Origin: Balanoglossus misakiensis
Lineage: Eukaryota; Animalia; Hemichordata
NCBI GenBank assembly: GCA_040954595.2
Contig: CM082595.2
Location: 3,023,943-3,087,942, forward strand
DNA: 64,000 bases
Direction: 5' to 3'
Shown here: positions 6,001-44,090 of the stretch, one piece after another
Layout: the number at the start of each line of letters is the position of its first letter
Position numbering within the stretch: the first letter of the stretch is position 1
Program-made: the position numbers and the translations under genes
Notes under the pieces: generated by a model
The model's database searches: none
What the model was told of the DNA's origin: nothing
The model's input: only the letters and a program-made list of their open reading frames with translations

Positions 6001-9000
6001 AAATCGACTTCTATCTCACGGCAAGCAAGCAAGCCAGCACACAAAACCTTACTTCTCAACAAAATTCCATTATGCTTAAAAATAGCAGAGAAAATTGATT
6101 TACAGGATATAGATTTTTCTGTCCCAAGGCAGAATGAGAATTCCACGTATTTCTGAAATCGCATCTACAGTCGTGCCACGACAAGCAAATACTCATTTCA
6201 ACATGTCTAAGCAAGACTTATTTTCTAAAAGATTGTTTATTTAGTATTTCAATCAACAGCGTTGCATAACAGTTAATCTGAAACAAGGAGAGATAATCAG
6301 GCGATTAACTATTCATTGTCTTCTAAATCGTCTGAGTAGTACAGTTACAATGGGAATTCAAGAAGTCCTTTTTTCTGATGAATTTTTTACTGACAAATAC
6401 TGATCGTAAATTTACCCACTAATTTTGTGAGTTGGAAATCGAGTTGCCTGGTGGTGAGAATATATTCTAGGTAAATGTCAGGACAAAATTGTGAAATGGG
6501 TCAAAACATTCTTAACTTAAAAGGTGGATTTCTATCCAGACTGAAGGTGTAAGCACACGCGAACAAAAGTGGACAGGAACTTCATCAAAAACATTTCTCG
6601 AGAATTGTGTGTTATTTTCTTTCTTGGGGAGATGTGTTTTGATGTCGTGACAATGGGGCGATACAGTCAAGGTCACAGAAATGTCAAGGTCATTTGTGAA
6701 TCATGATCCCATTAGCGGGCCAAACCTGTGACATTGGAAGTGAGATCAGCAGATGGTTGGTTTGCCCTTGACACTTCCCGTGAAGGAACCTCCCCTCACG
6801 GCTATGAGCGAAGCCATTACTGGAAAGTCACAGCGAAAACAGTGAGTCGCAGCGTGTGAAAACTGCACACATACTTGAGGCAGTCGAGATAAAAGTATCA
6901 AATTCAACACCGAAAATGTTTGCACAAAACTCTGTTACAGTCTCAAGTTGAATTAAAGCTGCAAGCAGCATTGAAGGGGCCAAAGCATAGAGATAATAAC
7001 CATTAGACTCCATTCAGGGTTGTACCATTCAAATGCGTAGGCTGTATTTGCTCTGGATGTGGAGATATGGGGAAGTAGGCAACCACCCGAAATGGATGTC
7101 CTACAAGTACAAACACAACAACCAAAAGTGAACTTCTACGATATGTAAGGACTTCAGTTAAGTACTTCAAAGGTCAGCTGAGGGTACCCAAAAATTAGGC
7201 CAAAAATTTGGATTCCTATTTGGTTCATATTCAAGACAACGGAAAATTCTCGCCCTTTGGGTTTTTAAAATTAGGTATGGCCATAATAATGAGTTACGCA
7301 AGTAAGTTACAGGTGGCCCTAGGAATTTAGCATTTCATGACGGTCCTACCCTACCCCTCCAAACACCTGGCTATATATGCTGTGCGTGCTAACATATGGA
7401 AAGCAGGTCAATGGACACCTGAGGTCACCCAAAAATTTGACAAAAAAATTTCATTCCTGTTAATGTCATGTGCAACAAATCCTACATTTGCAGCCCTTTC
7501 ACTTTGCCTAACATTAGGTATGCACGTAATACATGAATCAAGCAGGTGTCACAGGTATCCCCCTGTATTTGACATTTCATGATAGTTTCATCCCTCCAAA
7601 TACCAAAGCTGCACCTGTACAACGGGCTGAGATATGGCACTGTATGACAGAGGTCATCCAAATCACCTTATACATTTGGGCAAAAACGTAATGACGGTCA
7701 TAATGACGGTCAAAGTCCGATGCCCCAGTGTCCGTCCTCAGCCCACCAAAAAATGCGAAAAAATATTACAAAAATCTTCTTCTCAAAATCGGCGTGGCCT
7801 AGGACCTTGAAATTTGGCACAGGGTATTTTGGCCACATGGTCTACAAAAATCGCGAAAAGAATGTACATGCCCCCATTAACGTGCAAATTAGGTCAATTT
7901 GAAAATTTCGCTCGATTATAGCCACAAAGTCACGTGACTAATTACAAATTCAAAGGGCAGGTGCACCAGTACTCATGGGCCCCAACCACCGTGCCAAATT
8001 TGGAAGGCGCACCTGCCGGAATTTCAGAGAAAAACGGGCGCAAAAAAACGACTCAAGAAGAAAGAAGACAAACTCCAGCAATAACAGAAGGGGACCAAGC
8101 GCCTGAGGGCGCTTGGTCCCCTAAATAGATACCGTCTGTAATGGAGCGGAAAATGGGCTGCAAACACACCAGCTGCTTTCTGATATGTTTACAAACTGGA
8201 ATTTCTGAACGTAATATCATTTATATGAATCACACATTTGTACGGTGTAAGGAAACACTTCAAACATAGCCCATGTCCCTATAAATCATGCAAGAATGAG
8301 ACAGCTCTGTTGTAATAAATAGGTGGAGTATTCCATATTGTGATGGATGGGGGTATTAAGGGGGTGGGAGGATTAGTTTACCATGCAGAGAAATAGAGTC
8401 AATTGGAGCAATCTCACCTATCTTACCTGCACCAGACCAGATTGATAATTCGATTTCGGAGCCGAAGAACAGCTTGCCCTTGGTGAGTTGCATTGCCTTC
8501 TCCGCGTCGGCCGGCCTCTTGAAGAATATCAGCCCGTAGCGATCAACTCCGGCGCCTTGCACCCGCACGGCCAGAATGGTCCCGTGTTTCTTGAACTCGT
8601 GAAAGAGTCCATCCTTAAGACTGGTATCTGAAAATAAGAAGATTAAACACAGTGTTTAATTTTGCAAGCATAGGAGCTGCACAAAAATATATCTTTTTTT
8701 ACCACACAAATTTCGCGACAATTAATTTTCGCTCACACCCACACAAACAAGCTCACCTACTTGCACAGTCAACAGATGTACATGACAAATTACATGCTAA
8801 TTTAGGCGCACAGTTTGATAGTCACAGCACGAATACAGCACTGTCGATATTAACAAGAGTGGCCAAGCACATTACATCCATTTATAACCATGATGGATGG
8901 AAAAAGGCTTGGGGTGTGAATTTTTCAAAATGTCGGATAAAGAGCAGAATAATGGAATGGGTCAAGGACATCACAGCCATCAGATATTTCTGTTCTCGCT

Positions 9001-12000
9001 GAAGATGTATTTCTGGGGATGCTTATTTCTCAATTTATTTTTATCTGAAATCCAATGCTTTGTACAGGCATATTTTGCAGCAATCTTCAAAACAACATAC
9101 GATTTCAAATGAAATCCGCAGTAAATTTAGCACTGCACACGAAACTGCATTTTTCTGAATAACACACAGCTCAAGCTCAGAAAAGGATGTATGTCTCGAT
9201 GAAAATTCTATGAATGATTTCTTTGCTTCTGTCCGAATACTCACAATTTCTAATACACAAAAAAAATGCACAAAATTTTCTTCAGACAAAAATATCCGAT
9301 CAACACTTTGTGCTGTCTCCAAGAGATGTGTACAAAGACTTCGTTAATTGGTATGAAATAATAAATTTTTGCGTGCAAGATAAAATAACGAGCTAAAATA
9401 TCCTGTTCGTCTCATCATCGTGCCATGGGCGTGGGCGCGACAATAATACATCCCAGTTTCAATTAAGCCCAGTCAGAGAATCCACAGAAAACGCTGCAGC
9501 ACAGGTTGCTGGCCACGGGTCTATGGAAAACAACAGCTGCCAGCATTTCCGAATGCAAATCTAGAGTGAAATATCTGTTTTCCGAGTTAGTCATTCTTTA
9601 ATAATACTGTGAATAATTGCCTGGGCTTACAAAACTGGTTCACGTTACACATTAAACCTTGGAAAGCTGTGTTTTACCTCACGCTGATAAAATATAACTG
9701 CCTATATTTAAAAATACCAAAACTGCAGATGGGGATATAAATCAAGAAAAAATGGGACTAAACATGATAAAATAGACGAGTTAAATTTTCTTCATTAAAT
9801 GGTGAAATATTTTCTTGATATATCTACAAAGAAATGATTGAGGATTTTTACAGCAAAGTGCAGGATAACCCTCTGTGGCCCCTCTGTCGTTATCAGACCG
9901 ACTACATTTGCACACGTCATCAACATTACACAGACTGTCGTGTCAGGCTAGCGTTTGCACCAGTATTAACTAGTATTTCAATGCACAGCCGTTCCCTGCA
10001 GCCAGCCCTGCATTTTAAGTAGAAGCCAAGCTGTGTTTCGAGACGCTTTCGTAAACAAGAAATTCAGTCGTTACATGTTATGGGGATCTCTTCTGAACCA
10101 CAGAATGACTGATTTGAATTTACGCTAATTTTATAGACACCCACCTTTTTTATTCATAATTTTATTTCTTTCATAATATTTAAATTGGCAAAAATAACAA
10201 TGCTAAACCTGCTATGTAGTTTATTTTGGTATGTTTCTATGCAGCCGATTAAAATGTTATGAATGTTTGCATTAATGTGTATATTTCACTGGTGTTGGGC
10301 GATTGTCTATTTCAGCTGAAACTAGACCACACTCCCATACCCAAATCCCATGTCAACCCTCAGGCCACAAAACACCGAAGTATCAGGAATACACAGATCG
10401 TAAATGCTGTGACATCATCTACTTTCGATTCTATTTCTGTATTTAGCTGTATTTACATATGTGTCTGTCTATATAGTACTTCCAGCTGGTAGTTTCAAGA
10501 TGGCCGCCATTTCATCTATCTACAAAACAGATCACGTCAAAACCAAATGCTACATCATCATGGAAATTGAGAATTGTGAACGATACAAATCCGTAGAAAA
10601 GATGAAACGTGTTTCTGTAAACATAATACCAATATAGAGAAGTACGCGTGCTAATTATCTAGCCTGCATTTCCAGCATCTGCACATAAGCAAAACATAGA
10701 CTACCTTGAAATTTAATAGCCAGGATGTTTGATGATGCAATAACCAGTCTGTACCACAAATAAAATGCAGGCCGCTGGCAAAAGACCACGACTAAGTAAA
10801 TTATTACAGGCTACAAATAGGAAAAAATACTGCTCCAAATGTATCTCATAAACACCAACACAACTGACATTGTGTGTTGAGGCAACGCCGACAACAGCAG
10901 ATATTCCTGTATAACATCAACCATCTGTTTGTTATTTGCGTTTCTGTCAGGGTTGTAGTACACACATCACAGACAAACACACACACAAGGTGTGGCCCTT
11001 GTTAGCACAGCAAATATACAGGTACACGCATTCCTCTCATGTTAACTGGCAACCTCGTGGGGAGAAAAAATTAATCTGGGCCCAAACAGGCATGACTCAT
11101 AGTTTAAAAATAGCAAATTTGGTACAGATGTTTTTGCTGACACTTTTATTGTTATAATACATGCCAGTTTATATTTATTTTTGGCCAATCATTGTACATT
11201 GTAGTTCTGTGGTCTAGGACCAGCAGGCATTTCCGAAAAGAAATGTGACATAAATACCCAGATAATGTTGTTCCAGAAATGTACGTACATGTAGTAAAAA
11301 TACATACTATTTCTGACATCTTTGTAACTTTCCACAACATAAACATTATGACATACTAAAATACCATGGTTTTATTCTCAGGAACTTGAGAATAAAGTTG
11401 AGGATTTAAAATGGCACCAAATAGTGTCTTTTATTGAATTATTGAGTTTTTGTTTGTTTCATTTAGGTCTGCTGGAAGCAAGTGAAGTCATTCTTGCCTT
11501 GAAACCAAACAGCTGCAAACTGGACAAGTTGTGTGTTGGGCGAATTCTTTGATCACTATTTGCGTACCAAAATAACTGCTTGGGTGACAGGGACAAACAT
11601 ACTGTCCTGTACAAATATATGAACAACCCAATCAAACACGAGGTAGGCCATGGATGGAAAACACCTGATATTCTAAGTAATTCCCAGTTTGCCTAATGAA
11701 GCAAAGCACCCGACCTTGTTCAGCGTTATTCAACGCAGTGGTGGAATTTGAATAACAGTGTCAGCAGACAAACGAAGGCGCTGACCCTAAAATTTACGCC
11801 CATCAATCAAACCGGTCAAAACCGGTCTGCAGGCGCGCGCATGACGCGAGTGAATCATAACTGCCTCTTGTGAAACGCACATGCTCGTAATCTGTCGAAC
11901 GCTGCTTCATTAAAATATTTTCTATTATTCATGCTCAGTACGACAAAGGAATGATTTTGCTCTAACAATATATAACTCGTATATCACGCATCTGGTTTCG

Positions 12001-15000
12001 AGGGAAGGATGACCTGTAATCTAAAGACGCATCACGTCTGTTGTGAAATGGCTCTTCAGATTTATGAAGCGAGGAAAAATCACCGTAACTCATGTTTTAT
12101 TTTACAATGCGACATTTTATTTTGGAGCAGGCCTCCTACTATAAATATAACATCAGCATCCAGACGTTTACACCTACACCTGCAGTCACTCAGTCAGTGT
12201 ATACTTCAAACAAACACGATTTTTTAAAGGCTTCAAGTCAATTTACAGTCTGGCAATAACACCCACTCACACTCCATTTAACTTATCACAGGTATCCACC
12301 CACAGTATCAGACCAATACCTTGTCAGTCTTTACCTATTTACTGTGAACTGTGGGGGTGAAATAATTGGAGCTGAAACTCACAAGTTTGAGATTAATAAT
12401 TTTAGAATGTCTATTCTTCTAATGTCATACTTTAATCTATTTAATGATTTTTAGAAAGCGATCCAATTTCCTGTACCTGGAAGGCTAAAGCTGATATTTT
12501 TATCCTGTGCACATGAAACGCGAACATGAATTACACAAACAACCCAAACATGTTTCAATTCAACAGTACACAGAATCTGGGCCAGTTGCTTCAGCCCTGC
12601 TGGGTACATTTCATGAGGTACTTGGCCAAAGAAATCGCTCGGTTGCCATAGTGACAGATAAAAGGCCATGCAAACACAAAGCCCTGGCATGCTGGGGCTG
12701 AAATTAAACAGCTATCAGCTAGGTTTAGGAGCGAGGTAATGTCAACTAAGCCATTTATAGAACGGTCTCAAACAACACACAGCTGCGGCCCTGAAAAAAC
12801 GGCTGGGCAGCTGACCAGACATTCACACTGCCTGGAGGACAAGCATAACAAACAAACACTTCACCACCGATGGTTGAAAACATCCATTGCACTGAGAAGG
12901 TCCGTGATTGATGTCCCGTGGATATAATGGCTTGCGTGATTAATTCAGACAGTACTGTGGTACTGCGACGCGTGATTTGCATACAAACCGTTTCCCCTGT
13001 ACACACACACACACAGTGATCAGCAACTGCCAACATTTTTCGATACTCAATGGTGTCTGTGGGACAAAGTTGAAGGTACTCTGCACCCATAAACAAAGAG
13101 GCAATTATCAAGAAAATTTACTGCCGGGTGATAGCGTGACTCTAGGGCAGGGCATAGTGAAATATGGCACGGAAACGCACTTAAGTGGGGGAAATGCACA
13201 ATAGATTTTTTTCAATCATGCGCCGTGCTTGTAAGTTGAAAGGGTAAAATTTTCTTTTTGTTGTTGTTGAAAAAGTCTGGAATAAAAGTATGATTCAGAA
13301 GAACGAAGATTAAATTTTGAAGGCTTGTGAGAATGCCCTAGACTGAATATTTTTCTACAACAAAGAGGCTAGAATGTGTACTCTGCCTCTGAATGATTCT
13401 TTCATGTTGTTTCTCATTATGTAAGGGTCTGATACGAACACACCTGACCACGTTGAGGACCAAGCATGTTTGTGTACTATGGACTGCTTAGATTGGTTTT
13501 ATCTGATTTGACTCAAATCTAGCACAAGGTTTTATCTGATTTCATTCAAATCAAGCACATGGTGATTATATTCAATTCCCTTATTTGCCGCTTCAATTAT
13601 GGTGCAACGAAAAAAAAAATGCTAACGTTGAGAGATGATAAGCTTTGAACTAATTAATTAGCTGAATGGACCACTTAGGTGGGAGGGTCTTTGCATGTCC
13701 ATATTTGGGTACAGAATACCTGGTATATCGAGTAGAGTAGCAAGCTTTTGGGACCTCTATTTGAATAAGGCTGATTGGTCGCTGTGTGATCAGCGTTCAA
13801 AACAAACATGTCTACCCTTGCTGTGGTATAAATTTAACAACAAATTCCTCACTGTTATATACAGAAAAACTGGCAGATAAACTGTCTACCTATAGTAGAC
13901 TCATCATCTTGTGTGGCTTGTTAGCTGAGTTTAGGGTCAGAAAACAGCCGGAGAAATCTGTAAAAATTTCCCGCCATGGGAGGTTTCGAAATTCCTGGCA
14001 CGTTATTTTAGAACATGAAGGATACGAGTTGTGATTAAGATGAAACCAATGTGTGTCCCACTGTGGTTGTACTGTGCTACAATCGGAAAATATGCACTGC
14101 TACTTGCAACAAAGGGGCGAACATCTAAGAAAAGCCAGCCAATGACAGCTTGTGGTGTTCAAGTTAATACCTACTTCACACATTAGGGGGTCCCAACTAT
14201 ATCCTTTATTTCTTCCATTCTTTTACAGTTTTCAGACAGTTGTTGTCAAACAGAGGGAACCACAGCCTAGCGTTCACACAAAATGCCAAAAAGCCCAGCG
14301 GTCTTTTATTATGGATATTAACCATTATCAAAGAAGACATCAACTTTGAAAATGCTTCCCTCAATACTGACATTTTATATTATTCAGGTCAAAAAAACCT
14401 ATCAACAGAGTCAACATATGGTGTATACATACATGTACTAAAAATATCTGATGCCACGCTAAAAAATACTTCCACCCCTTTTAAAATATGTCTGTCAAAT
14501 TTTAATAGATTATATTTTTTTCTGTCAAATGTTGATGTATAGGGCTTCTTCATAAATACATGTGATTTCCAATTGTCAATTTCGGATTATTATAGGGCTA
14601 TCCGGTCCATAAATGCCCCCTAGTGTAAGGAAACTTCTCATGTTACAAAAAACGCTCACATGCCGAGTATATCGTTGGCTTCTTGCCAATGAACATTTGC
14701 ACTGGCAAAACACATTTTTTTACAATTACAGTACTACATCAAGACAAAGGCAGCCATAAGCTTTAAAAATTATCTTCTAATAAACCAAACTGTTATAGGA
14801 TTTTTCAACACTTTTAAATGGTATCTCTCAAGACAACCTTGTCACAGTTTCATTTCTCTGAGAAACAACTTGAAATTTAACCCTTTTAGCCCCGGTTCCC
14901 TCTTTAGAGGTTTAACCTTACCATGGAAAACAATGGGTTAGTTTTGGTGAAAGGGTTAATTTTGTAGCATGGTATGAAGCTGGCATGTCTGAGAAGGCCC

Positions 15001-18000
15001 TTATCTGTGCTCCAAACAATTCTCACTGTTTGTCAAGACATGACCCTGGTACACTGTGGTCCATTCACGCACAGCATAATTTGCATTCAGCTTTGTCAAT
15101 AGGCAAGATTCGCACCTATTTTCCATCTGCCTCCAAATTAATTCTCTACAAACTCCTGAAGGTGTGAAATCCAAGCCTTTCTTCACACAATACAGATACC
15201 ATTTTCGGGTAATGAGATTAGCTCCCAGGATTGACAGGTTGGCATGGTCTCACAGGAATTTCAATGTTATTGGCCGTGTACTCTGGTATTAGACCTGTCC
15301 TCCATAGAAGGACACCTTCAGCAAAAACCTGATAAGACTCTTCCTATTTACATCATAAGATGAGCAAGATAAGACTCCTCAGATTCTTAAAATTATTTCA
15401 AAATGGCCATTAGTGGTAACTTTTGGTTATTTCTACACTATTTTGTACATCAACTACTTTTCTTGTTCTACTTCTTACATGATGTTGATATTCCCAGCAT
15501 TCTGCTTGTTAACATACCCTGTATATGTGTTGACTGAAATTCAATTTTGAACGATAACAATGATGGCTGTGTACATATAGGTTAGATCGATAAACACTGG
15601 GCATTCAACCATGCTCCAGAGATTTCAACAAGAAACTGTAGTTGTCACACCAAATAAAAATACTGAAATAACCAAAAGTTACCGTTTCAAATCACAAAGT
15701 CAACTTCCCTTGAAATATTTCTTTGTGAGGGGGAGGGGCATCGAGACCTACCTGTTGATCTTGTGGGGAGATTCTTGACACACAAAGCGACAGATTTCCT
15801 GCTGCTGTTACTAACAATAGTACTCTCGGTATTTCTGCTCTCTTTGCTGCTAGCCCTACTGCTCTGACTGAAAGAACAAAAATATTATTCTCCGTTAAAC
15901 ACATCGCAATAATTTTACACCAACAAAATATGGATTATGAAACAGAATCACTGTCTGAAGGTAATACTTTTCGTTTGCAAAGTGAACACACCGCCAACAT
16001 CAATCAAGAAATATAATTGAGGGATATGGACAACTGAATGTGTAAATATTACTTTTGATTTATATGTTATGAATTGTAATTTAACTGACTGTGATGTGAT
16101 AAATATAGCAGAGTGCAATACGCACCTACGAGAACGATGTGAACCACTATCTCTGCTGTTGCTCCTGCTTCGACTAGAAACACTACTCTGACTACTTCTT
16201 GACCGACTTCTCGATCCACCTGAACTCCTGGAACCGGAACACGATCTGGATTTCGACTGCGACCGGGAGCGCGACAGCGACGGGGAATGCGACCGCGATC
16301 GTGATCCGGACTGTCCACGGGCAAGCGCTTTCTTGCGGATCTTTTTATGCTTCAACTGTCCCCTAGGTATGTCGGTGCTCTGGGTATCCCCACTCCGCCG
16401 CCTGTGTTCGTATTTACTGCTGTACTTATATCCGGGAATGTACGTCGCAGACGGCCTTTTCTGCTGCGAGTACGCCGCTGCAGCTCGCGAATACGGCTTT
16501 CGCCGCGAATGCGAGGAATAATACATGGCTGCAATGTCTTCGTTATCATAATAAGCGGCTGCTGCAGCAGAGGCTGCGTGCTCGTAGTGTCGCTCGTACA
16601 TACTCCGGTCGTACGCGTATGCTCCATGTTCGTAATTCCGTTCATCGGGGTACCTGAAATGACATCAAACAACAATAATAAGTAAGACGGCGTGTTCTCT
16701 GAACCAATCAAAACGCACGTATCAGCATGCATTAGGCGCTCCAGAATAAAATCAGAGCAAACCACCTTATTAGCATATATGCAGGACACATCTAGCAGGC
16801 AGTCACGCCAGCCTTGGGGGAAAAATCTAATCAAGAGATGCTAAATAAATGTATGACAGAATGACCTGGAGGAAATTTAAAATTTCCATTTCCATGCAGC
16901 TGCTGGCCAGAGAAGAGGACTAATCAGGATTTTAATAGGACTGGGTCAGCACTATCAATTACGTCTGTCTAGCTCGCAATCCATTATTCATCTGATGCTT
17001 TGACATTTTCACTGCACTTGGCTGGCCTCATTGCAGGGTGTTTTTCAAACACAGTCCACGCGGTGAACCTCAATCTGTCTTAATTATTCGTAGATTTCTT
17101 TACTCCTATCTGTGCTTAGAGAAATAACACCATTTAAATTGAACAGAAATTTAAAATATGATCTAGTGGCTTGTGTAGTTTTCCTGAAAGCTCGTTATGT
17201 CTATGTCAATTTCTCTTTGCTATATTTTCTGATTGTCTGAGCATGGAACCCTTTTTTTTTCAATTCCAATGGGAGTAACCTAGCTACCTTGGAATGAATT
17301 GATTGACGGTCAGAATTTGTAACGCTATCTGTCAGACGACAGACATACAAGCTTTAACAGCATGACATTTTTTTCTCTCCTAATAACCTCTTCTTATTAA
17401 AATGCTGGGGAAAAAGCTTGATTATTGAATATTGAATTTAAATCAAAGCAAGTTATGGTTTTAAATATATTTGTCATTTCGCTATAAAAAGTAAAACTGA
17501 ACGACATCAAACTAAATAAAATTTAATTCTTACACCATGCCTATTTTTAACGCTAAGTATTTTTGCATATTTAATTCTGTAATCCATCTGCCAAGTGTTT
17601 GATTTTTCAACAGAAGAATGAACCAGACAAAATATATAATGAGACAGGATTAGATTTTCTATACAGTGAGTGGGCGGATCCATATCTTAGTGGCTTTTTT
17701 TTCTAAAATGTCAATATTCCAATGCACTTCATTTTTCATGAGGCTAGCATTTATGTAGATTACTTTATGCGGCACAGCTATGAAAATTAGGCTTTGGGGA
17801 ACACTAGCCTTCCCTGTCGTTAGCATTCCCTATCACTAGCCTTCCATGTGTCGTTAGCCTTCACAGATACAGTTACTTCCCAAGCCCACCCTTTTTTAAT
17901 TAAATACATTTGCTTCTATAAATGTGTCTGACAGATAGCTGAGTATTTCTAGACGAAAAAATCTAAATTTATTCTTGCTCAAAAATTTATGAATCCCATT

Positions 18001-21000
18001 TTAGTTGTCTTAAAATATGCCATCGAGCATTTAATCGAAAGGTAACTGTAGTTTATATGTTTCACATTTAGTTCAATTCATGTCCAAACTACCGTTAATC
18101 AAATTATATAACACAGTATCAACACTGTATTGGTTTAGTGTAGTTGTTGAATTGTGTTTGTAGCATCAATCTCACCAGATTATTTATTCAGAATTCTCTT
18201 AATAATTAAACCTCGAATCTAAATGTGAATAAATATGAAACAAACTGAGCTATCATCAAAGGAATCTTAATTCAGAGGCTTTGTTTAACTTTATTTTTAT
18301 TCATTTTATTTTAGTTCCCATTTTTATTTGTGGACTAGTTGCTTCTTTTGTTGGGGGAGGGGGATCTCTCTTATTGTTTATTTTTAAATTTTATTTCTTC
18401 TTGTGACTTGCACCTGCATGGGGAAAGATGTTCACACCAAAAAAAATATAAGCAGACATATAATCTCTCAGACAGCATAGAACAGGGAGAAATATCACCT
18501 GGTTAGGTAGCAAGAGATATAATGAGATGCAATCAATCAATAAATGATGATGTATTATGTAAATGGTGACATACTGACGAGACGCAAGATCAGCAACTAC
18601 GATATCTCTTCTTTTCTGTCAATTTTGAAAATTTGATCTACTCCACATGCTGTTAGTAGCTCCGATCGAAATGGCCAAAATGTGATGTGTTAGTCAAAAC
18701 TGAGTTACAACTGAATTGTCACACAACACAATGAAGAAAATACCAACCTTTGGGTGGCTTGTTTCTTATACTCCTGGTATATTCAAAATCCAGGGGTATG
18801 AGCAATAAGCCAACTTAAACAATACATTTTTTTTTATTAGAGAACCCAATCCTGAACAAAACACATGGAAAATGAGGTATATCCAGGGAAAGAGAGGGGG
18901 TACCCCAGGACAGAATACTGCATATATAAAAATCCCAGAGAATTATTGCATAGATAATTGTGTTGGCCGTCATCCACGGCTCCCGCGAGTGCTGATGACG
19001 CGCGCGGCGGTAATTATCCAGTGTCTGCAGGGCGGGGCTGTTTCATTTATCCATCGTCATCAGTGTCATTGTGTGCACAAGTTCATAAGTCCAGTGTCAG
19101 TTACAGCTTCGCTCGATATCAACAGTCTGGCAGAAATCTCGAAAATAAAACCAGCATGTTATCCCAAACCTGGAGAAGTATTCCAGCCAATGCTCAGGCT
19201 AGGCGTCAAGAGTACAATAGTGTCAATCACTCGCATATCCTGGTTGTGTGTGACAGAATAATGCCATGGTAAAATTTTACGTCCGGTCAATTGTCAGAGG
19301 TTGTTTAGTGTTCTGTAGCTACACGTACAATTAGTCTGTTATGTGTCCAGCTCGAGGTGATATTACAATGTTATTCCGATGCTACCATATCCAAACTAAT
19401 TCCACCGAGACTTGCAGCCATCACGTTGATATAAATCCCAGATTTTTTCTTTATTACTTTCCCAAAAGTAATCACGATCCAAACCTTACTGCATTCTACT
19501 AGCGGTACGCAAAATTGTCTCTTCTGGTCGATGACAGATAAATGCAGGAAAATACATTCCTGGAGGGACGGAGATGGCAAAACTGTTCTGCAACACTGCC
19601 GATGGCTGATGACGAAGACATCTAACGTTCTAACAGTAGTAATGTTTCCATTAGAAAATCCTTGTACTTTGGTACCAGACTGAGCTGATCTCCAGTACCA
19701 ATACACTTAGTCACAGTTCAATATATCCATAGCTGGATTTCTGTTTTGATAAGATTCATCCTCAAGGCGTAGGAAGTGGTACAGTAAATCCACATCAGGG
19801 GCTGGATTAAGATTTCCTCCCAGCAATGGTTATCAGGAGACCGCCAATTACTCGATCAGCAACCACTGTTACGCTGGGTAGTTGGGATGACTAGTAATAT
19901 TATGATATACTCCTAAGATTTCCTTGCCATGATGAGGATGATGGTTGATGATGACATCAGGTACTTATCCCCACTGGACTGAGATGGAGAAAGTTCAGAA
20001 CTGCTGGTTGTGGATGAAGCTGGCAGATGGTCTGGGGGAGGTTCTAAGCTGCGGTATTTTCTCCGGGGGCTAGCTTGCTGCCCGGGGGGACAGACCGGAT
20101 TACTTTTCCCCACAGCTGCTTAGGGAGAAACCTGGAATACATTTCCTCGAGTTCAGGCAGGAACGTGGCTGGGAATATATTCTCCAACTGCTGCTGGTAC
20201 GACTCTGAGTATATATGTCCGATGGTCGGCTTCGAGGCGAGACACTGGACAATAATTCCTCATATTGTGCGTCAACGGAAGACAAAATCTAGAACGCCGC
20301 CTGGAATTATAATTTTCCCCGTGGACTTGCAGTAGTAGGCTTAATTCACCAGACGATCATTGCCTGCTATGCCTGAGAATTTATCCACACAGGGAAACAA
20401 GCAAATGCGGATATATCCCATTGAATTGGCAGTTGGGACGAACCGAATGCACCACACAAAAACCGAGCAGGTCATGCATCGCTGTGTGCAGACATTGTAT
20501 CACACTAAAACAGAAAACCTACCCTGTGTTTTTTGTTTAAATTGAAACTTACCCTTCCCTGACATAACGCGACTGGCGACCGTAGGTACTACCGAAATCC
20601 CTGGAGCTCATCATGGACAAGTGCTGCGACGGCGAGTCCTCTCGTTCGTGAATATGTACGACTGTACCCGGCGTCCTTTCAGGCTCATTATAGTCTGTCC
20701 TCAACTCACGATCACCAACTTTATTGACAGATTCATGAGCAATCGTTGCACATTTAATATCTACAAAATCCACAAACGCCGATAACGTTCCATCGGATGC
20801 ACGTTTAGGTAAAATCTTCACACTCTCAATACGTCCATACCTGCAAATCAATGAACAGACACATGAATAACTCTTGAAACATTACACTGTAAGCGGTTCC
20901 TTATGCAAAAATAGATTAAATGTGAAGGTAGACCGCAGGAGTGCTAATCACCCAGTGTTTTGTTCAGGAAATGTTGGTCGTCAACATAAATGCATATTCA

Positions 21001-21983
21001 TAAGGGAAACCCACATTTAGAAACCCACATAACACAAAATAATGTGCCTCTGCAGAAAATTTAATAAAAAACAGCAAAATTTATGTCGTATTTTTTCCTG
21101 TCGATCGGTGTGCACTGGAAAAAACGTCCACCCACCCTATCCAGTTGGAAGACATTATAGCAAGATCTCTGCGACCAAAAATAGAACAAGCATCCTGTCA
21201 AAATGCTTCTATTATCAGACAAGAATTACAATGTAAATTTCACAGGTTTAGCCATTTCTCCCTCGCAAAAATCAGGCTTGAGTTCAGCCAAAGTAGGTCC
21301 ATGCAGTACAATTGAAGCGATCGTCTGTCAACACACTCAGAATTTATCACCGCATTTTGGCGATCTCCCCGTATTATTATAAAACGCTGATCTGCGATAT
21401 GAAGTGCGTCTGATCAGATTTCAATACTAGTCTGCAACACACACAAAATACGTCACATTTTGTCGTCTGGCCAGAATCACAATCATCTTAGCCCACGAAA
21501 CATAGCGAGTTGTGACTGTGGATACAGTCGTTTCCATACGTTCATTAGATTTATGTTTATTAGTTCTCGACTCTGTAGAAATCAAACATTTCTGAATGCC
21601 AGAGTTTTATAGCGTGTGTGTCATATGCATTGGGAGACCTCGCTGCTTGCACTCACAATATGACAATCAAGTTATCAACTGCGATCGTGCAAACCTGTGG
21701 CCCGTTCCGCAGGCGTATGTTTGATTTATTTCAGGGTACACAATCAAGCAGTCGCGATCTCCACGCTCACAAAATAACTACGGCAACAAGACAGCCTTTT
21801 AGTTCTAGTGATTAAACAAGGTAGAGCTCAGGAAAAAATATGGCGAGAAACTCATACAAGCGCAGCAAGCATGCAATGCAGCCAGCTACTAGCTACTCAC
21901 CGCTTAAAATGTTCGACGATTTTTTCCTCGCGAATGTTTTCTGGTAGATTCCCGACCCAGAGGTGCCTTGTCTCTCGCGGCAT
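1..21983 (-). CDS. SPEN: SPEN/SHARP/MINT (Msx2-interacting protein), N-terminal ~1119 codons; the gene continues off the left edge
   Basis: Phase-consistent GT-AG exons: 21983-21901, 20840-20553, 16653-16126, 15867-15752, 8627-8427, 3019-2868, 2769-2644, 2486-2259, 2097-1982, 1800-1519, 1237-<1. The N-terminus MPRETRHLWVGNLPENIREEKIVEHFKRYGRIESVKILPKR is RRM1. It is followed by a Tyr-rich and RS-rich linker, RRM2 (VKNLPTRSTDTSLKDGLFHEFKKHG), RRM3 (ASRTLFIGNLEK), RRM4 (LGFGKSMANNCLWVEG...VDFAS) and the start of the large Lys/Glu-rich exon. Confidence 0.96.
6951..8125. mobile_element. Non-autonomous Helentron/HINE-like (Helitron group) element in SPEN intron 5
   Basis: The left end reads aattaaagctgcaagcagcattgaaggggccaaagc. 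The right end has a GC-rich palindromic hairpin ggggaccaagcgcc-tgag-ggcgcttggtcccc followed by taaat, preceded by an aag-rich tract. The subterminal ggggccaaagc is an imperfect inverted match to gcttggtcccc. No transposase ORF. The family assignment is by architecture only. Confidence 0.7.
13495..13560. repeat. Two-copy ~33-bp tandem duplication
   Basis: ggttttatctgatttgactcaaatctagcacaa followed by ggttttatctgatttcattcaaatcaagcacat. Confidence 0.8.
14877..14959. mobile_element. Short piggyBac-like MITE (TTAA-CCC...GGG-TTAA), copy 1
   Basis: ttaa|cccttttagcc...ggtgaaaggg|ttaa. The internal core ctctttagagg...gaaaacaatggg is shared with the copies at 25452 and 33076. Confidence 0.7.
18770..20420 (-). 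repeat. Degenerate array of GGA-(W)n-UCC/ACC mini-hairpin motifs in SPEN intron 2 (candidate structured RNA element)
   Basis: More than 20 sense-strand units, for example GGAAAAGUAAUCC, GGAAAUGUAUUCC, GGAAUUAUUGUCC, CGGAGAAAAUACCG, GGAUAAGUACCUG and GGAAUACUUCUCC. Spacing is 28-45 nt between 20050 and 20420. No long ORF in any frame. Confidence 0.6.
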
Positions 21984-22210: not shown

Positions 22211-22781
22211 TGATAATGAAATCGGATAATGTTTGTGTTGACGCGCAGAAAAAGCGACACATCGGGAATCTTACGGTGCCATCCTGTGTGGTAACACGCT
22301 GTAAAGCAGATAAAGACCATCTCTTACGGATATAATGTGTTTTAATCGACAAAATAACGATCATAAGGCGTTTTCCAACGTACACGTCATTCTTCAACAT
22401 ATTTGCGTCGTCCAGAATTTTCTACCAATTTAAACCCGGAATGGTGTCATTATCTATTATCATAAGTACGATGGAATTGTTCCAGTATAGAAACATCCAG
22501 GAGATAATGTGCTACGAAAAAAAACTGGCTCCAACACGTTCTTACATGTATTGCCATGGTGTAACAAAGGCGTAAACCCAACTCTTATGTAAGAGAGATA
22601 GACATGGTGATTAGCAGATATCACTCGTTTTGCGCGTAAACTTCTCTCGGGAAAAATAGCTAAAAGGAGTAGAGATTAGCCACCAGGACGCATTTTCACG
22701 ACTGGAAAATACTGCTATCGGACAGAATTGACGGATATTTTTCTTTCTTTCTTAATGCGGGCCATTGATCACGTCTCTTGG

Positions 22782-22873
22782 TAGCTCTGCGTACAGGTCT
22801 GTGTGTTCCCGGCGTTACACGGCCTCCACCCACGGTATAACGCCGGGAACACACAGACCTGTACGCAGAGCTA
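22782..22873. mobile_element. 92-bp foldback MITE with 36-bp perfect TIRs and a 9-bp TSD
   Basis: TIR tagctctgcgtacaggtctgtgtgttcccggcgtta (22782-22817) and its exact reverse complement (22838-22873). The direct repeat gtctcttgg lies on both flanks. Confidence 0.88.
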
Positions 22874-24554
22874 GTCTCTTGGATGGTTTCTTTGTTTGCC
22901 GACAAAGCCTACTGGTGGTGGGGGTATGCTGAGGCGACATGAGGCGTAGGAAGCAATTCATGGTTGGGGGAGGGGGGCAAATGTAATCTACATTCTGGTG
23001 GCGAATGACCGACAGAGTAAATTTGTATATATGCATGAAATAAAATAATTGAAATAATACATATGTATATGAATGAATTTCTAAAATGGTGGCACGAGCG
23101 CATTCATTGTGTTTTGAGGCACTAACTTTCGACCCTTTTTTCGGGCTTTCTTTGTCTTCATTCGGGGTTGTTATTTTTATTATTCGGATATTAAGATGTC
23201 ATGCGATTCGGCAATAAAGTCTAATTCTTCCAAAACTTACAAATTTCAAAGCATATCACGTACACATTTTAGTACCACTTTGGCAGTAAGTAGCGCTTGA
23301 TTTTCAACCAATAAGAAACCCTACAAGTACGCATGTTTCCTCAATAAACTGTAGAGGGCGTTGTTTTGGGGTGGTTTTGCAGGAAAAAAGTGCGAAAAAC
23401 GTAGTCGACAGGGGAAAAACAGTTAAGATGAGACTTTATATAGTAATAACAAATGTCCCTTGACAGTTTTATTTATAATATTTTACAGAATGGCTAGGCA
23501 ATAAGTTTTCTTGCCATAATAAAGTCCACAGGTACCACAAGTGTTCTCAAGAATGAAATCTTGTATTGTAAAACAAAAAAAGTGCAATGCTTGTTTCAAG
23601 TACTGGGTCCATTTATGTGTGTACAATGAAAGTGCGAACTGAGTTTGTGCGAAAATAAGTTTACATATTTTTATTTGTTTTACATTTTTTTAAAGTTCAA
23701 AGTCTCTAACACAAAGACCTGCTTTCAATATACTGAATCATGTACCACTTTAATCCTCATGTTTAGAAAACCATTTTTTTTTGTAAATGTGTATTCACTT
23801 TGTTCGTTTCATAAAGGATTCATTTTTGAATTTTTTTAATAAACAAAGCAAATTTCCAAACCTCTTTGTAATTTGTATGAGCTTATATTTTTCTCAACAT
23901 ATACATAGGTAAATTTGTGATAAGTAGTTAGAGGTACAATTCAAATGTTGCATATACTTTCCTTCTCAATTGGCCAGACTCCCCAACGTACAAACTATCA
24001 CAAAATGACAAATATCTCTGTGTGCCTAAGTATCGTAAACATTCAAAATTTACAGCCACAAAATATTCAAAGATTATAATAATTATTTCTGTATATTTAC
24101 ATGTATAATACTTTTATCAAGGTTTTCTCAAAGACAAAATGACAAATATACATTTCACTAACTACTCTACTACAGGTAATGAATATACAACAAGAGGAAA
24201 CTATAAACATATGCAAGAATTATTCATTCTACATCTCAGATAGAAGAAGGGGCGGACCAAATACCGAATTTCACATCATTGGAAGAATTCTTGTCTCTGA
24301 AATAATAACTTAAAGGTATCCAGTGACGACAATAAAACAACTACCGTACTTCACATATTCAATGAAAGTTTCCACTCTCAGTAATCACAAGTTCATATTT
24401 TATAGCAGCATCGTGCATAAACACGTGTACTTTGCACAAATTATTATAATTTTGGACCCCCTTACATCCCCATTTACAGTTGTACACCAGGTCCTTCATA
24501 AAGAACAGTGCACTGGGTGACTCTGATAAATACTGTACAGATCCACGATATTAA

Positions 24555-27500: not shown

Positions 27501-30500
27501 AATTTGTCTACATCGGTCAATTTGTTTCATGGCAAATCTTAACATGCCATTTCTGCATTACTTCGACTTACTGGGCGCTCTACAGAAAGACATGATAGAA
27601 AATATTTGAGTGTTGGCCAATTTTTCATAAGGCATCATCATTTTCATCATCTACAACTTTAAGTATGTGAAATGTGAACAGCATCTTCGTCAACAGTGAC
27701 TTACTGATTGGAGGTGGTAATGGTGATGGCGGGATGGACTGTGAGGAGCTGGGACGGCTACCACTTGACCGCGGTCTGGAGTTTCCGGTCCCGGGTCGAC
27801 TTCCACTTCTTGTTACTGGTCTGGATATCTGCAAGCGAAGTCAAGTGTTGTACCGAAGTTTGAAAATGTTTTGTAGCATCCTACAGATTTTGTTGTTTCT
27901 ATAGAATTCAACAGAAAAAGGGTCCAAAACTATACAGAATTCTATAAACTTATATAGAAATTCATTAGGACTTACCTGTCCATTCATTTGACTCAGAGGT
28001 CGGCTGCTTGGAACAGGACTAATTGAAAAGTAAATTATTAAAATATTTGTTTATTTCTCCAGAAATGTAACTTATAAGATGATGTATATTTGTAATCAAA
28101 ATGCATCGATTTTAAGAAAAAGTTGAGCATCTTGGACTCTTAGAGCAAACCTGAAGCCAAAGTAAACAAACTGCCCAAATCTTAGATATCCACCCCACTC
28201 CCATTTATCAGATAGCAAGAGGGGTGTCACTCACCTTGGAGGAATGTCAGCTGCCATTCTGCGAGTACTTGGTGTGACAGGTCTTCTTAGAGGTTCGTCC
28301 AATATTGCGTCTAGTTGCTGATTATAAAATATGCCATTATTATGTGCGATCATGGATGTCTATTACAAATATTTGCTATAAGAACTTCATGTACTTAAGT
28401 GCTTAAAAATGTCTAAGATTACGAGAATACTATTGGTAGTAAGTTGAAGTCATGATAATTTACACATATGAAAAAAAAAGTTAAACATTGAAAAGATAGC
28501 ACTGGCAGTATGTCACATGAAAGTATTCTAAGTTATGAGTGAACAAGATGGGAATAATAAAGACACAACAAAGAGCATGTGCAGACACAGCAGTGTTGAG
28601 ACATTCACCCCTATTTGCTGATGAAATGATCCACTCCTCAGCATGTTACAATGGGAAAGGGGCATGACTCACTGGGGAAATAGGGGTGTAAGGTGCATGC
28701 TTAAGTCAGAAAGCAGAGGATGTGGATAGAGTTATTACAATTGTCAGAGGGGGTACCTTATTTCTCTTGGGTTTGGCACTGTGATTCGGAACCTGGAAAT
28801 AGAGACGGGACCGTACGTTACGGACATGCAACATACATGCATTTAATACAACAGTCAACCACATGATATGCCTCGGACACCATGGTCTAACTATATGCAT
28901 GTTAGTTTGCGATGTTCTCATGACAAACACACATATGTGTGCACACAAACGTATACTTGCATACACACATGCATGCAAACACATAGACACAGTCACCTAC
29001 ATGATACACAGAGACAAAAACACACATGCACGCATACACACACATACACTAATGTATACTCACACACACATATACGTACACACACACAGCCACTCACACA
29101 CACTACACACACAAACTCACCCCAAGATACACTGCCTGGAGTAACTTCTCTCCAGCTAATTCCCCAGGCTCTGCTTGGATCACCTCCGCCTTATCAAGAT
29201 CTGCCTCCATCGCATCCTGTTCCTCCTGATAGAAATAATCACATTTCACACTTCAATATTTCCCGTTTAAGACTTCTGCATCACGTTAAAAAAAGCATCA
29301 AATACTGTCATCGACACTGTCAACATCAACACATACTGACTTCTACACCATCAATAATAACATATGTAGACCTCTGTCAATATCAACCTATATTGACCTG
29401 CAGAGTGATGTAATATTTACCTCGTCATCATCCTCATCTTCATCATCTGAATCGTTACCATCATCTGGTTGTTCATCTGTCAAAAAACAGACATTTCTTT
29501 GGTGAAATATGGTCAAAGGCACTATGTAAGACTGGTCATCTTCAATTATCTGTGTTCAGTGCTTTTAACATTTACCTGGGTACCACCCTTGACAAAAACA
29601 ATGTATGTTACTGCAAATGGTTGACTCAAGAACTTCACAAGATATACACTCGATGTCACTTACTTGAATTGAGTTGCTTGATAATGAATTGAATCTGTCG
29701 ACTCATGTCAGGATTGTCGTCTTTCAGGAAAGTTCTCAGAATCTCCTCCAAACCCTGAAAAATAAAAACAACATTTGGTGTCACATCAAACAGATGATAA
29801 TACAATTTATTCTGTACACATTTCAGGAACTTTTGCAGTGTCTCTTTCATTGGAAGACTGCTGAATCTTATCTGCACAACCTCAAATGGTTTATTATTTA
29901 CAGTTTCTGTAAGTCGTCTGAACCTGCCCACATATTAAACACAGTGTCCACCACCCAGACTTACCATTGCCTTGGCCTCGTCTCTGATTGATGGAATGGC
30001 AAGGATGCTGTAGAGTGTCCCATTCACATACGGGCGAATCTAGACAGAAAAAAAATTATTATTAATTTAATGACAATTATTGAAAATACGTTATATATAG
30101 ATAGATGGGAATATCTAAGTTGCCAAAAACCATTTAAGAATTATTCCTCACCTCTTGATTTTCATGACCGAGGAGATCACTCAAAACTTTCAAGATGTGT
30201 GGTGCGTCTTCGATACACTTCATTTTACCTGCACGGTACAAAAAACAGCAAAAATATTGATACACAGTACAATCTATATGTACACTAACTGACCTGTAAA
30301 AGACTGAGTTTAGGAAAGTCCTTGACTGGCCACTATAGATATGTTTGACTGTGTTTGTGTGAATTATATACTCTTACAGAGAACAGAGCCTTTGGAACAG
30401 GTGCAAATCACCAATACAAACAAACAGTGGACACCATTTACTGCTGATCATGGGACACATTTGCTGAGATGACTTACCAGCCGTCCTGAGACACAGATTC

Positions 30501-33500
30501 ATCAACAAGGCTACTGAGTACTCCAGTGTGTAGTCTGACAGGGCGTCGCTGTCTTCCAGTACTGAGACCAGCCACTGAATCAGATTTCCGTCTATCATCT
30601 GAGTTTGCAGAATACGCCTGTGAATCAGAGGTAGAATTGTCAATAAACGAATCGGTTTGGACAGTAAATATACACTAGCCAGCTATGCCAGTCAACTGGT
30701 GGATATCAATACTTGAACCTCATTCACTCGATGTTGTATAACAAACCTGACTTACTTCAGACTTAGTTTCTGCATGGCTCCTAGGATGTTTTCCCTTGTA
30801 ATGGAGTCTTTGTCTTCTGACTGTAGTGTTTCATGCAGTTCGGGGAGTAAGTGGGCGTTCTTGGCAAGGTAGGTCCTCCCTGTCGTGATGAGTGGCAGAC
30901 AGTGTATTGTTAGAAGGCGAGGGGGGAAGGGGAGGGGAGGGAAGAGGTGGTTGTGATGGCTGAGAGTTACTCACGCTAAAATGAGATCTCACACATGGTC
31001 AAGTCACATACCTTCTGCTAATGATGCAAATGCATTAAACAATCTGGCTGTGTACTGCCGAACAACTTCTGCATTGGAGCCAAGTAAATCTAACACTTTT
31101 TCCTGGAGAAAAAAGAAGAAACACATGCATTTGGACCAACCACACATATCAACCCTTTTAATGCCTTAGTAAACTTGTCGTCATCTTTCAAAAAATACAC
31201 GCTCATAACTTTTTCCACATTTGTTCTCAAATTTTGATTAAGACCTGAAGACAGTGGAAAATTATGACCACTTCGTCTAAAATTCAGGAAAACAATTGGA
31301 GAAAAATGAGTGAAAATGTAAAAATATTGCACCATATTATGACAGGGAAAATGTGACATACCTGGTATTCCCCTCTTTGAGCACATCCTAATAAATCATT
31401 CAAACAATACGATGACATCACCATGTTTCTCTGTTCTCCAGGCATGCTTCGTGTCAGTCTCTGCCCAAAAAAAAAGAAGTCAAAAAATCAGGAGAAACAT
31501 CTCTGTATGTGAGAATTTTTCCCAATGCTCAGAGATGACAACAAACGTCTATAATAGAACACAATGAATAGTGGCCAATTTCTAAACATATCAGAAATTC
31601 TTACATCTTACCAGTGTATATTACATGAAAATAGAAAGGTACAAAACACTCACCCATCTCAAAGCCTGTAAAAGTAACATTTTTCTTCTGTCATCGCCGT
31701 TTACAACATCTTCTTTGACTTTGGCATAATCCAACGCTGGCAACAAGTTCTCTTCCGCTTCACTGTACAGAACAGAAAACAACATGTAGATAAATCTTGG
31801 CACCGCTGCAATCCTGAAACCCCTACATTTCTGCCATATTCCCTTATTCCCATTGTATTTCTGGGTCGGTTGGACTATACCATTTGGAGTTGGGTGTGAG
31901 TAGGTTTATATACAGAGAAGTGCACTGGGTTACGGGTACATGTGTCAGTAAATTACATGTATTCATTTGTTGCTGTGTGTTGCAATAACTGTATTGTATT
32001 GTAGTTTAGTGGTAGTAGTGTAATGTATTGTAGTGTGAGTGTAGTGTAGTGTAATATGCTGACTGTAACATTCATTGATGATATGCTATTTTAGTATCGC
32101 TACGAGCAGAGTTAGATATATTAATTCGTATGCAAGCAACGCCGGGTCTATGCCTACTGAAACTAAAAACAAGCAGATTTATTGGAGTTTTAATGTTGCT
32201 ATTAAAATGATTAGATAAGGTCCATCAGTTGCAGCTATTAATTTGGAAAGGGTTTAAATAATTTAGAAAATGCATGAAGTACATGTGTTAGTGTACTGCA
32301 TGTACTGTTAGTAATTGCTGTACCAGGTTGTTGTGTATTTGGTGTAGTTAGCGTCATTAAGTTGAGGTTAATGGCTATGTGTGTCTGTTTGATCATCGTG
32401 AATTATGAACTGTGTACAATACCTGGATTCCTCAGGGATAGGACTGAAAACAAAGGGAACGCATTATGCTGTTAGTCTTAGAAGCCAAACAGAAGCCTGA
32501 AGTTACCCCTGCTGTGGTTCAGGTTAAGACATGCAATCAGGTTTGTGGAGAACACTACAATGGCAGAATGGAACCGATCACAGCCTGGTCTTTCCGGAAT
32601 CATCACTTTAATATATTTTCGTTCAGAATTAAATAACTTACCTGTGAGGTAATGCAGAAGCTCTCAGTAACGTACCAGCCTATAACAGATTTTAACAAAA
32701 GATTAACACAATTCCATGTCACACTGATTTCTATATCCTATAATTTAGTACAAAATTTGTATTATATTAAATATTCCCAAGTTAAACCAAGACTCAAATT
32801 GAAATATCATAAATTGAAATTCATAAATTTGGGTAGGGAAACTTACAGTTCCTGGCCGACTGATGTCCACAGATTCAGCAACATGACTACTGAATAATTT
32901 TGTACACACTGTTTGTAGATATTCTGGCGTAACCTAGGAGACAACAATGTATGAATGTTACTAACTGTACTCATAATCCAAAGTCACTGAAAAAGTGTTT
33001 TTAATTGATACACAACTTTTCAACAAAGTAGAAGGCAAAAATGCATGAATGTTATAAGATTGAATGAATGGTCTGTTAACCCTCTCACCACCATGGTTCA
33101 GTTCAAACCCATTGTTTTCTATGGTAAGGTTGAACCACTAAAGAGTGAACTGGGGGTGAAAGGGTAGGCTTGCGGCAATCTAAAATGATACACAACTTTT
33201 CCAAAAAAAGTAGTTGGTGAGAGAGTAGTCTGAATTGAGTTATGGCAAGGATCTTGCCACCCCACAAATTGAACTCAAAGTTGCCAGCAATGAGACTGCT
33301 TTCAACTGCAGCACGGGCTCAAAGGCAATCCACCTCAACCCGACCACAGCCAGATCCAAGGCTTCTTACGCCAAACTTCGCACCATGCCAATCACAGTTG
33401 CTGGTGTCTCACCCGTCGTGATAACGACAGCGTCCATCTAGGAACGTTTGATTGCTTTGGTCTCAGACCTTCCCAAGGGTAAGACAGAGGTTACAACAGA

Positions 33501-39584: not shown

Positions 39585-40713
39585 AACATTGTCTGGTTTT
39601 GGAGATAAACAGAAGAAAATGCAGAATGGAGTGTATGACGGCCGAAGACATCCAAAAAAAATAATAAAATGGAATGTAGAATTAAACAACGTATTTGCTG
39701 GAGATCTGCAGATTGAACTGATAAGCGAGTTTGAAGATGGCCATCTTTGCAGATCTGTCCACCAGCATGGATCACTCCACAAAGCAATTCCATATCCAGA
39801 ACTTATCCAGTACTGACCAGAGAGTGGACAGCCATGGTATTGGAAATATCTATTTTTCATAAAGTCAGGAAGATAAAGTATATTGTTCCTGCGATGGCAA
39901 AGCAAGAGGCAGATAAAGATTTTGTTTCTTTTCTTTTACAAACCAAGTTCCACGATTATAGTTTCATAGTGCTGAATGCCTGTATATTGCGACAGGAGGA
40001 AAAACAATAAAACATGATACACATACATGTACAGTGTACTTGTATTTTAGTACGGAGTGGTGGATGGAAACTGTCAAGTTCACTTATATGCAAATTTATT
40101 TAGGCGTACAGTACTGTACCCTGGACTTCATATGCTCAGGAATTTTTTCATTCAGATTTACCTTATAATTATGTGCATATCTTATAATAGTGTCAACTGT
40201 CAATGTGAGTTTGTGTTGGGAATTTGTATCAGGGCTGGTTCCAAGTTTGGGGGAAGGGGGTACACTGGTATTACAATCCAACAAAAGACACCACCACACA
40301 CAGATATTGCTGTTCAAACTTTTATTCATGCTGATCTTGCACATGTTGCTTTGACTTTGTCATTACACACAACTTCCGTATACAGGATGTAACATTTGCT
40401 CTCAGTTCATTAGTATTTTAAAGATAACAAAGTAGGAAAAAAACAACACTTCTAATTCGGTTAAACAGTAATGGCATGTCTGTTTTTTAAAAAATTCTGT
40501 TCTTTTTACGCAGCAACTAAGTCTAGGTTCTAATCCAACTTCTTCTTATCCCCCCTGGAGAAATTTGTCCAGGTTGATATTTTTATTAAACCAAGCTTGG
40601 ATGAAAAATTTTCTGTAGCCAAAACATACAGACACGCCATTACTTTCCCCACTGAAATTTCAGCAACATGTGCCAGCGCTGTTGTCAACTGTACTACACG
40701 ATGTCGACCCTCT

Positions 40714-43830: not shown

Positions 43831-44090
<260 letters not shown>

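Follow-up and report, generated by a model that had tools for sequence, protein, structure and literature searches.

SPEN, the repressor by which Xist silences an X chromosome, restrains the output of its own gene. Its RRM2-4 region crosslinks to Spen mRNA, at AU-rich single strands that adjoin duplexes and share no longer motif, and Spen mRNA goes up in knockouts (Carter et al. 2020, PMC7282817). Spen transcription likewise rises without SPEN (Trotman et al., bioRxiv 10.1101/2025.05.21.655143). The available text of these two papers, figures aside, names no intron-2 site or cis element for this self-repression. Mouse Spen also has an alternative 5′ splice site in intron 2 that depends on N6-methyladenosine (m6A) (Wei et al. 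2021, PMC8327914). An m6A peak lies near the 5′ splice site of that intron and is displayed with an RBM15 crosslinking and immunoprecipitation (CLIP) track; the accompanying LeafCutter table lists two Spen junctions that end at a single acceptor and whose donors are separated by 1,213 nucleotides (nt), and the share of the minor, downstream-donor junction drops from 0.34 to 0.17 after METTL3 depletion (PMC8327914 and its supplement 5). Neither a GGA word nor an invertebrate counterpart or deep conservation of the event is described in the accessible part of that paper. The present analysis concerns the same intron in a hemichordate. The window, as the whole stretch is called here, comprises 64,000 nt of Balanoglossus misakiensis DNA (GenBank assembly GCA_040954595.2, contig CM082595.2, positions 3,023,943 to 3,087,942 of the forward strand). 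On its minus strand, intron 2 of SPEN opens with a 1,805-nt segment rich in GGA followed by A/U (18748..20552), which is probably a poison extension that alternative splicing adds to exon 2.

Unproductive (poison) splicing occurs in the genes of serine/arginine-rich (SR) proteins and of other RNA-binding proteins. In the SR genes, a conserved alternative segment with a premature stop lies in the regulator's own gene, and the SPEN segment is alike in this; unlike those poison exons, it is an alternative-donor extension of 1.3-2.3 kb, conserved as word density and one donor. The mouse Spen donor is closer still, being in the same gene and intron, 1.2 kb downstream as against 1.3-2.3 kb in the window and five other loci, and the minor mouse form would be unproductive. 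SPEN self-repression offers a functional parallel: SPEN binds Spen RNA, which rises upon SPEN loss. Another example is found in Arabidopsis, in which the SPEN-family protein FPA limits itself through a truncated, RRM1-only form from an early intron (review PMC10111866). FPA differs in that it uses a poly(A) site lying proximally within intron 1, whereas AATAAA is absent from the two vertebrate SPEN extensions considered below (PMC10111866 for FPA). Repeat A of Xist resembles the segment in that numerous short units, with G-rich cores beside A/U runs, are gathered close to the 5′ end of a nascent transcript, and in its published links to SPEN, SR proteins and the m6A machinery. SPEN self-repression and the m6A-dependent mouse donor are known separately; the GGA word, the anatomy with two boundaries and the range as far as coral-like animals did not turn up in the literature searched; figures and some supplements lay outside that search and may place SPEN binding in intron 2.

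Two boundaries enclose the segment. The proximal one is the productive donor of exon 2, G/GTAAGT (20547..20555, minus strand; a slash marks the exon-intron cut), which holds a TAA at 20549-20551 that is in frame upon donor read-through. The distal one is the donor-like site AAAG/GTTGGTAT (18740..18751, minus strand, GT at 18747-18746), whose form is presumably that of a weak 5′ splice site, going by the textbook consensus. Both would be joined to the common acceptor at 16654. Splicing at 20552 leaves the frame open through exon 3, and splicing at 18747 would yield 124 amino acids followed by the TAA, 1,801 nt ahead of the next junction. A stop far upstream of a later junction is the textbook mark of a decay substrate, and the locus thus combines two sequence features of poison exons, an early in-frame stop and a conserved alternative splice site. 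Both had been missed in a preliminary description of this DNA, which had noticed the GGA units; together they point to alternative splicing. The distal site itself (18740-18747) carries two GT dinucleotides 4 nt apart. In vertebrate-like loci the second of them resembles a good donor too, and the precise position of the cut might therefore shift by 4 nt. A long imperfect stem-loop occupies 18750-18818, directly upstream of this site; the corresponding vertebrate blocks fold differently, and the three-sequence consensus fold of the distal block is weak (-6.7 kcal/mol).

That the gene is SPEN, on the minus strand, agrees with the earlier placement of the units and follows from the exon map and the exon-2 peptide. 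Coding exon 1 (21901..21983) has 83 nt counted from the ATG at 21983; exon 2 (20553..20840, 288 nt) encodes the remainder of RRM1; intron 2 spans 16654..20552; and exon 3 lies at 16126..16653, its 3′ end being approximate. The exon-2 peptide matches RRM weakly, and its alignment retrieves named SPEN/msx2-interacting proteins, the closest named relative among the compared proteins being that of amphioxus (Branchiostoma), with 62% identity. The N-terminal RRM1 exons are homologous to SPEN and the intron sits at the same position. Two predicted proteins, P0008 and P0015, correspond to SPEN exons 1-2 and end exactly at the donor stop. They may be traces of the extended isoform and were not used as evidence: P0008 may stem from gene prediction on DNA (intron 1 of about 600 nt), and P0015 could reflect a contig end.

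The word field was counted with a rule picked with the sequence in view, namely GGA followed by at least 6 A/T within the next 8 nt, against 2000 dinucleotide shuffles, the 64-kb window and the flanking regions of other loci. On the sense strand of 18770-20430 the rule finds 28 sites, where 5.9 +/- 2.3 are expected and 0 of 2000 shuffles reach as many; on the antisense strand it finds 10 against 6.7 expected (231 of 2000 shuffles as high). Among 302 sliding 1.66-kb windows on both strands the array stands at z 12.7, whereas the highest value reached elsewhere is z 3.3. Both the strand direction and the excess density noted at the outset are thereby upheld. The field is wider than the 18 units first listed, all of which read as written at their minus-strand coordinates, for the 1,805-nt segment contains 42 sense GGA. 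Its top 4-mer is GGAT and its top 5-mer GGATA (10 against 1.4 expected). Past the distal site the density of GGAT/TGGA falls from 14.4 to 3.3 per kb and the G+C fraction from 0.44 to 0.32; the rest of intron 2 (16654..18747, minus strand, 2,094 nt) shows no motif enrichment, and no excess was found in the 3′ half of intron 2 or in intron 1.

The most regular part, a core of 11 units at 20052..20419 (minus strand), has units at intervals of about 28-45 nt, separated by unrelated spacers; a CC closes most of them. Its GGA are spaced more evenly than randomly placed ones (coefficient of variation 0.27 against 0.76, p 0.001), as are those of the whole segment (0.57 against 0.87, p 0.001). The regular spacing first reported stands, at 28-44 nt from start to start; the values of 32 and 45 nt given with it arise from counting from GGA. 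The 5′ GGA, described as near-invariant, is found in most core units and missing from 2 of the 11, and the strict pattern proposed for counting, with its closing CC, matches only 2 sites in the region. CATCGG, which resembles the SRSF1-binding part of Xist Repeat A, occurs at about 19381, 19605 and 20225 on the minus strand (3 against 0.2 expected); this triplet is possibly chance, because the seven other loci described below hold only 3 such words.

An array of this kind might be suspected of being what decay has left of a minisatellite, a transposon or a coding sequence, or else a random pattern that merely caught the eye, and the regular spacing in the window lends that some colour. The spacers, though, are unrelated (381 of 1000 shuffles of the ten core spacers show equal similarity), and in the animal's own DNA runs X1 and X2 the segment lies at single-copy depth over 18938-20839 (45 against 38-72 in neighbouring unique bins), whereas true repeats nearby reach 10^4-10^5 in the same runs. 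Read depth in these runs indicates no further genomic copies at 80% identity or more. It follows that the segment is neither a minisatellite nor a dispersed repeat; an ordinary minisatellite had already been set aside in the preliminary description. Tandem and direct or inverted repeat finders returned only short chance families in the array, and Rfam gave three chance-level matches (best E 0.43), among them KCNQ1OT1_1 at 20010-20150 on the plus strand, antisense to SPEN, with E 4.2. The segment is not coding: it has no peptide in common with another locus, and only 11 of 36 indels between two coral-like introns are multiples of three. With the signal also repeated in held-out loci, remnants and chance are barely credible. 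A weak hint of low variation comes from the matches listed for the animal's own DNA runs: a 1,906-nt X1 contig shows no differences over 19111-21016, X2 has 0 differences over 19852-20358 and 7 over 19111-19690, and X3 has 14 differences and 15 gap letters over 17623-17906.

The units could also be DNA sites, forming an intronic enhancer with inverted GGA cores for factors of the ETS, NFAT or Rel type. The core units are near-palindromic and match on both strands (7 and 6 against 0.5 and 0.7), as such an enhancer would have it. Outside the core and in all other loci, however, the signal is sense-only, and it ends at a donor-like site, so that a DNA-level role is very unlikely.

SPEN introns of other animals served as a held-out comparison. 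An exon-2 alignment scan of metagenome contigs yielded 15 loci. Seven of these are SPEN genes that remain after removal of redundancy and include sequence of intron 2; there is no protostome among them. Going by best peptide match only, L001 and L002 are stony-coral-like (96% to Oculina), L009 is anthozoan-like, L008 and L011 are teleost-like, L010 is amniote-like (identical to the eagle peptide) and L012 is unplaced. Left out of the counts were copies of L001 (L003, L004, L005 and L007), of L002 (L006) and of L012 (L013), together with L014, which has no donor at the position and looks spliced or intronless; L015 was rejected as not being SPEN (42% over 31 amino acids). None of the 30 and none of the 176 candidate stretches from genome-contig and viral-contig collections was a SPEN relative. 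L012 and L013 are near-identical alleles; what sets them apart, at about 2650-3150 of L012, is some 500 nt of inserted sequence towards the 3′ end of intron 2, which lies beyond the GGA-rich part.

None of the seven introns aligns with intron 2 of the window. The test words GGAT and TGGAT, chosen from the window segment, are nevertheless in excess there: over the pooled first 1,800 nt of intron 2, sense strand, GGAT occurs 126 times against 56.9 expected (2.2-fold) and TGGAT 76 times against 23.5 (3.2-fold), whereas control ratios (antisense strand, next 1,800 nt, upstream intron) are 0.72-1.42. GGAC and GGAG are not raised in these loci (GGAC ratio 0.93), and the word that the loci have in common is (U)GGA(U/A). 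Per locus, z for GGAT is 5.0, 3.4, 5.8, 1.2, 5.2, 4.1 and 2.3. In the coral-like pair the aligned words are kept at 12 of 17 GGAT and 14 of 22 TGGA sites, against 0.38 for all 4-mers, and on the antisense strand at 0 of 5 and 2 of 8. With these counts the array stands as a sense-strand, single-copy, non-coding element of RNA type in SPEN intron 2, and orthologous introns carry it as well.

The two boundaries recur as well. G/GTAAGT with its in-frame TAA is present at the proximal donor in 8 of 8 sequences, the window and the seven other loci. For the distal site, the pattern AG/GTTRGTAY occurs once per intron, at offsets of 1805 nt in the window, 1301 in L010, 1818 in L011, 2129 in L001, 2080 in L002 and 2256 in L009, that is, 1.3-2.3 kb into the intron in 5 of the 6 non-redundant other loci with sufficient sequence (L008 stops at 1,353 nt of intron); its background is 1 match per 23.6 kb in all sequence examined, these matches included. 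GGAT/TGGA density is lower after the site in 6 of the 6 sequences that carry it, and ungapped identity between the coral-like pair reaches 0.88 over the 250 nt that lead up to the site, then falls to 0.67-0.71 beyond it. Between the amniote-like L010 and the teleost-like L011 the sole aligning stretch of intron 2 is a 117-nt block (81%, E 8e-22). Its core is the only 12-mer common to both and the window, where it lies at 18751-18740, just beyond the last GGA unit. A profile built from the two vertebrate blocks has a single match in the 64 kb, both strands considered, at 18795-18726 on the minus strand (E 0.11), and gives no sense-strand match under E 4.9 in the non-vertebrate loci.

Taken together, we consider it probable, at roughly 0.6, that the GGA array forms the main part of a poison extension to exon 2, taken up by alternative splicing, which lowers SPEN output. 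This interpretation builds on observed features, namely word density, strand, two boundaries, the in-frame stop and their recurrence in coral-like, teleost-like and amniote-like SPEN; because coral-like and vertebrate genes have a similar layout, the dead-end exon extension is likely ancient. Nascent SPEN RNA would be spliced either at 20552, giving full-length SPEN, or at 18747. The distal product, with its stop after 124 amino acids, might be a substrate of nonsense-mediated decay or of nuclear retention, or a source of an RRM1-only peptide. Some 40 single-stranded (U)GGA(U/A) words would likely bind GGA-reading SR proteins such as SRSF1, whose RRM2 recognises GGA (PMC7813835), and such binding would define a long and weak extension. 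SR proteins and A/U runs are in turn predicted to recruit SPEN and RBM15 with the m6A writer; SRSF1 is known to help recruit SPEN (bioRxiv 10.1101/2025.05.21.655143). RBM15 is reported to bind stem-loops (bioRxiv 10.1101/2023.07.20.549950). More SPEN, or more m6A, may then lead to more distal splicing, to local transcriptional repression or to both, which would close a negative feedback loop. The motif reported for the Drosophila protein Nito is unrelated to the GGA word (bioRxiv 10.1101/2025.08.19.671041).

The units may instead be direct, multivalent sites for SPEN RRM2-4 on nascent RNA, with A/U loops beside short stems, splicing being secondary and feedback mainly transcriptional through NCoR/SMRT-HDAC3. 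The preliminary description had favoured this form, seeing in the units an array of mini-hairpins close to the Xist A-repeat. The crosslinks of RRM2-4 to Spen mRNA, the AU-rich strands beside duplexes and the rise of Spen mRNA in knockouts (PMC7282817) all accord with direct binding, as do the prominence of GGATA in the segment, the in vitro binding of SPEN to Repeat A's U-rich spacers (bioRxiv 10.1101/2025.05.21.655143), and the change that SPEN causes in reactivity at the A-repeat GAUAC, for which at least 4 units are needed (PMC10870365). The hairpin itself did not hold up as a conserved unit. The core folds no more than its shuffles (z 0.13), a unit taken by itself yields 0 to -3.3 kcal/mol, and local folding gives self-closure at P>0.7 for only 3 of the 10 core units that begin with GG. 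In held-out loci a CC closes 57 of 208 GGAW sites, 0.27 against a background of 0.24, an elevated share being confined to L008 and L010 and, in the window, to the core; with neither excess folding nor a conserved closing arm, the array does not qualify as structured RNA. The period of about 35 nt, evident in the window core, is regular in only 1 of the 7 other loci, namely L010, where spacing over 8321-9621 is fairly regular (45% of GGA gaps at 26-45 nt against 24%, p 0.005 uncorrected).

A close likeness to the A-repeat is likewise unsupported. Genuine tandem repetition marks Repeat A, in which CAUCG and GAUAC parts are conserved and the spacers are U-rich; in the window segment only a word of 4-5 nt recurs, and the spacers are unrelated and GC-richer. 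The 1,805 nt contain GGATAC 0 times, GATAC once and CAWCG 5 times, with no tandem repeat of a core of about 25 nt and no CAUCG or GAUAC part per unit. Judged by its sequence, the segment does not belong to the A-repeat family. In cells, moreover, SPEN recruitment to Repeat A relies more on SR-protein motifs than on the U-rich spacers bound in vitro (bioRxiv 10.1101/2025.05.21.655143), and direct binding leaves the distal donor unexplained. As the whole account of the array it is unlikely; it is compatible with a poison extension.

A number of points count against the poison extension. The binding of SR proteins or SPEN to the segment is a predicted one, as is the use of the distal site as a donor in this animal. 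Conservation of the TAA is weak evidence, because it belongs to the common donor sequence. The distal pattern was widened to R at +4 after the coral-like loci were inspected; it has no match in the intron of L012/L013 despite motif enrichment there; and L009, which has the site, is weakly enriched in GGAT (z 1.2). L001 and L002 are related and do not count as independent. The likeness between the window and the vertebrate blocks is modest by itself, since local alignments of shuffled sequence equal its score in 16 of 300 and 5 of 300 cases. The mouse donor is equated with the conserved site by distance alone (1,213 nt against 1,301 nt in the amniote-like gene), and the mouse junction cluster has p 0.002 and an adjusted p of 0.156 (PMC8327914). 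Finally, DRACH words are not enriched in the window segment (35 against 34.1, z 0.2), so the GGA words are not themselves m6A sites; the L010 segment is depleted of DRACH (z -3.3).

The lack of DRACH enrichment bears equally on a further explanation, in which the extension senses the level of m6A/RBM15 or of SR proteins and tunes SPEN, with SPEN itself outside the loop. In mouse Spen intron 2, both the m6A mark close to the 5′ splice site and the METTL3-dependent alternative donor suit such a sensor (PMC8327914). SPEN loss, though, raises Spen RNA in two studies (PMC7282817; bioRxiv 10.1101/2025.05.21.655143), and a sensor without SPEN is rather improbable.

Elsewhere in the window, adjacent minus-strand genes lie at 30374-36225 (ARMC9 exons) and 40530-43175 (a cold-shock-domain, Y-box-like gene). 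Short elements that carry inverted arms and occur in high copy number lie at 22782-22862 and 14876-14939 (summed X1/X2 depth 25,000-100,000 and 16,000-42,000, respectively). Since 22753-22883 and 23059-23328 are missing from contigs of the same sample, these insertions upstream of SPEN look polymorphic. Microsatellites of 3-, 8- and 4-nt units abut at 43833-44091. A bacterial promoter and terminator scan was empty and is irrelevant to this animal DNA.

SPEN is far older than Xist, and one may ask what feature of RNA it came to read in evolution. The locus offers a bounded and mutable candidate, consisting of two donors, one short word and 1.3-2.3 kb, which is found again, though not as sequence that can be aligned, in SPEN genes of coral-like, fish-like and bird-like type. 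It bears on how SPEN dose is set, on whether an SR protein or SPEN reads the word, and on whether such a grammar was borrowed by Repeat A. More tentatively, intron 2 might contain the RNA domain that natively recruits SPEN, older than the bilaterians, in which m6A, poison splicing and the recruitment of SPEN are coupled as a self-dosing switch, with Repeat A a late convergent user of the same (U)GGA(U/A) grammar; this broader proposal is possible, though less likely than not. If it were true, a multivalent (U)GGA(U/A) field would have been kept from corals to vertebrates as word density and not as alignable sequence, and the segment should replace Repeat A in a silencing assay. Should the human gene be alike, the distal donor may offer a handle for raising SPEN output.

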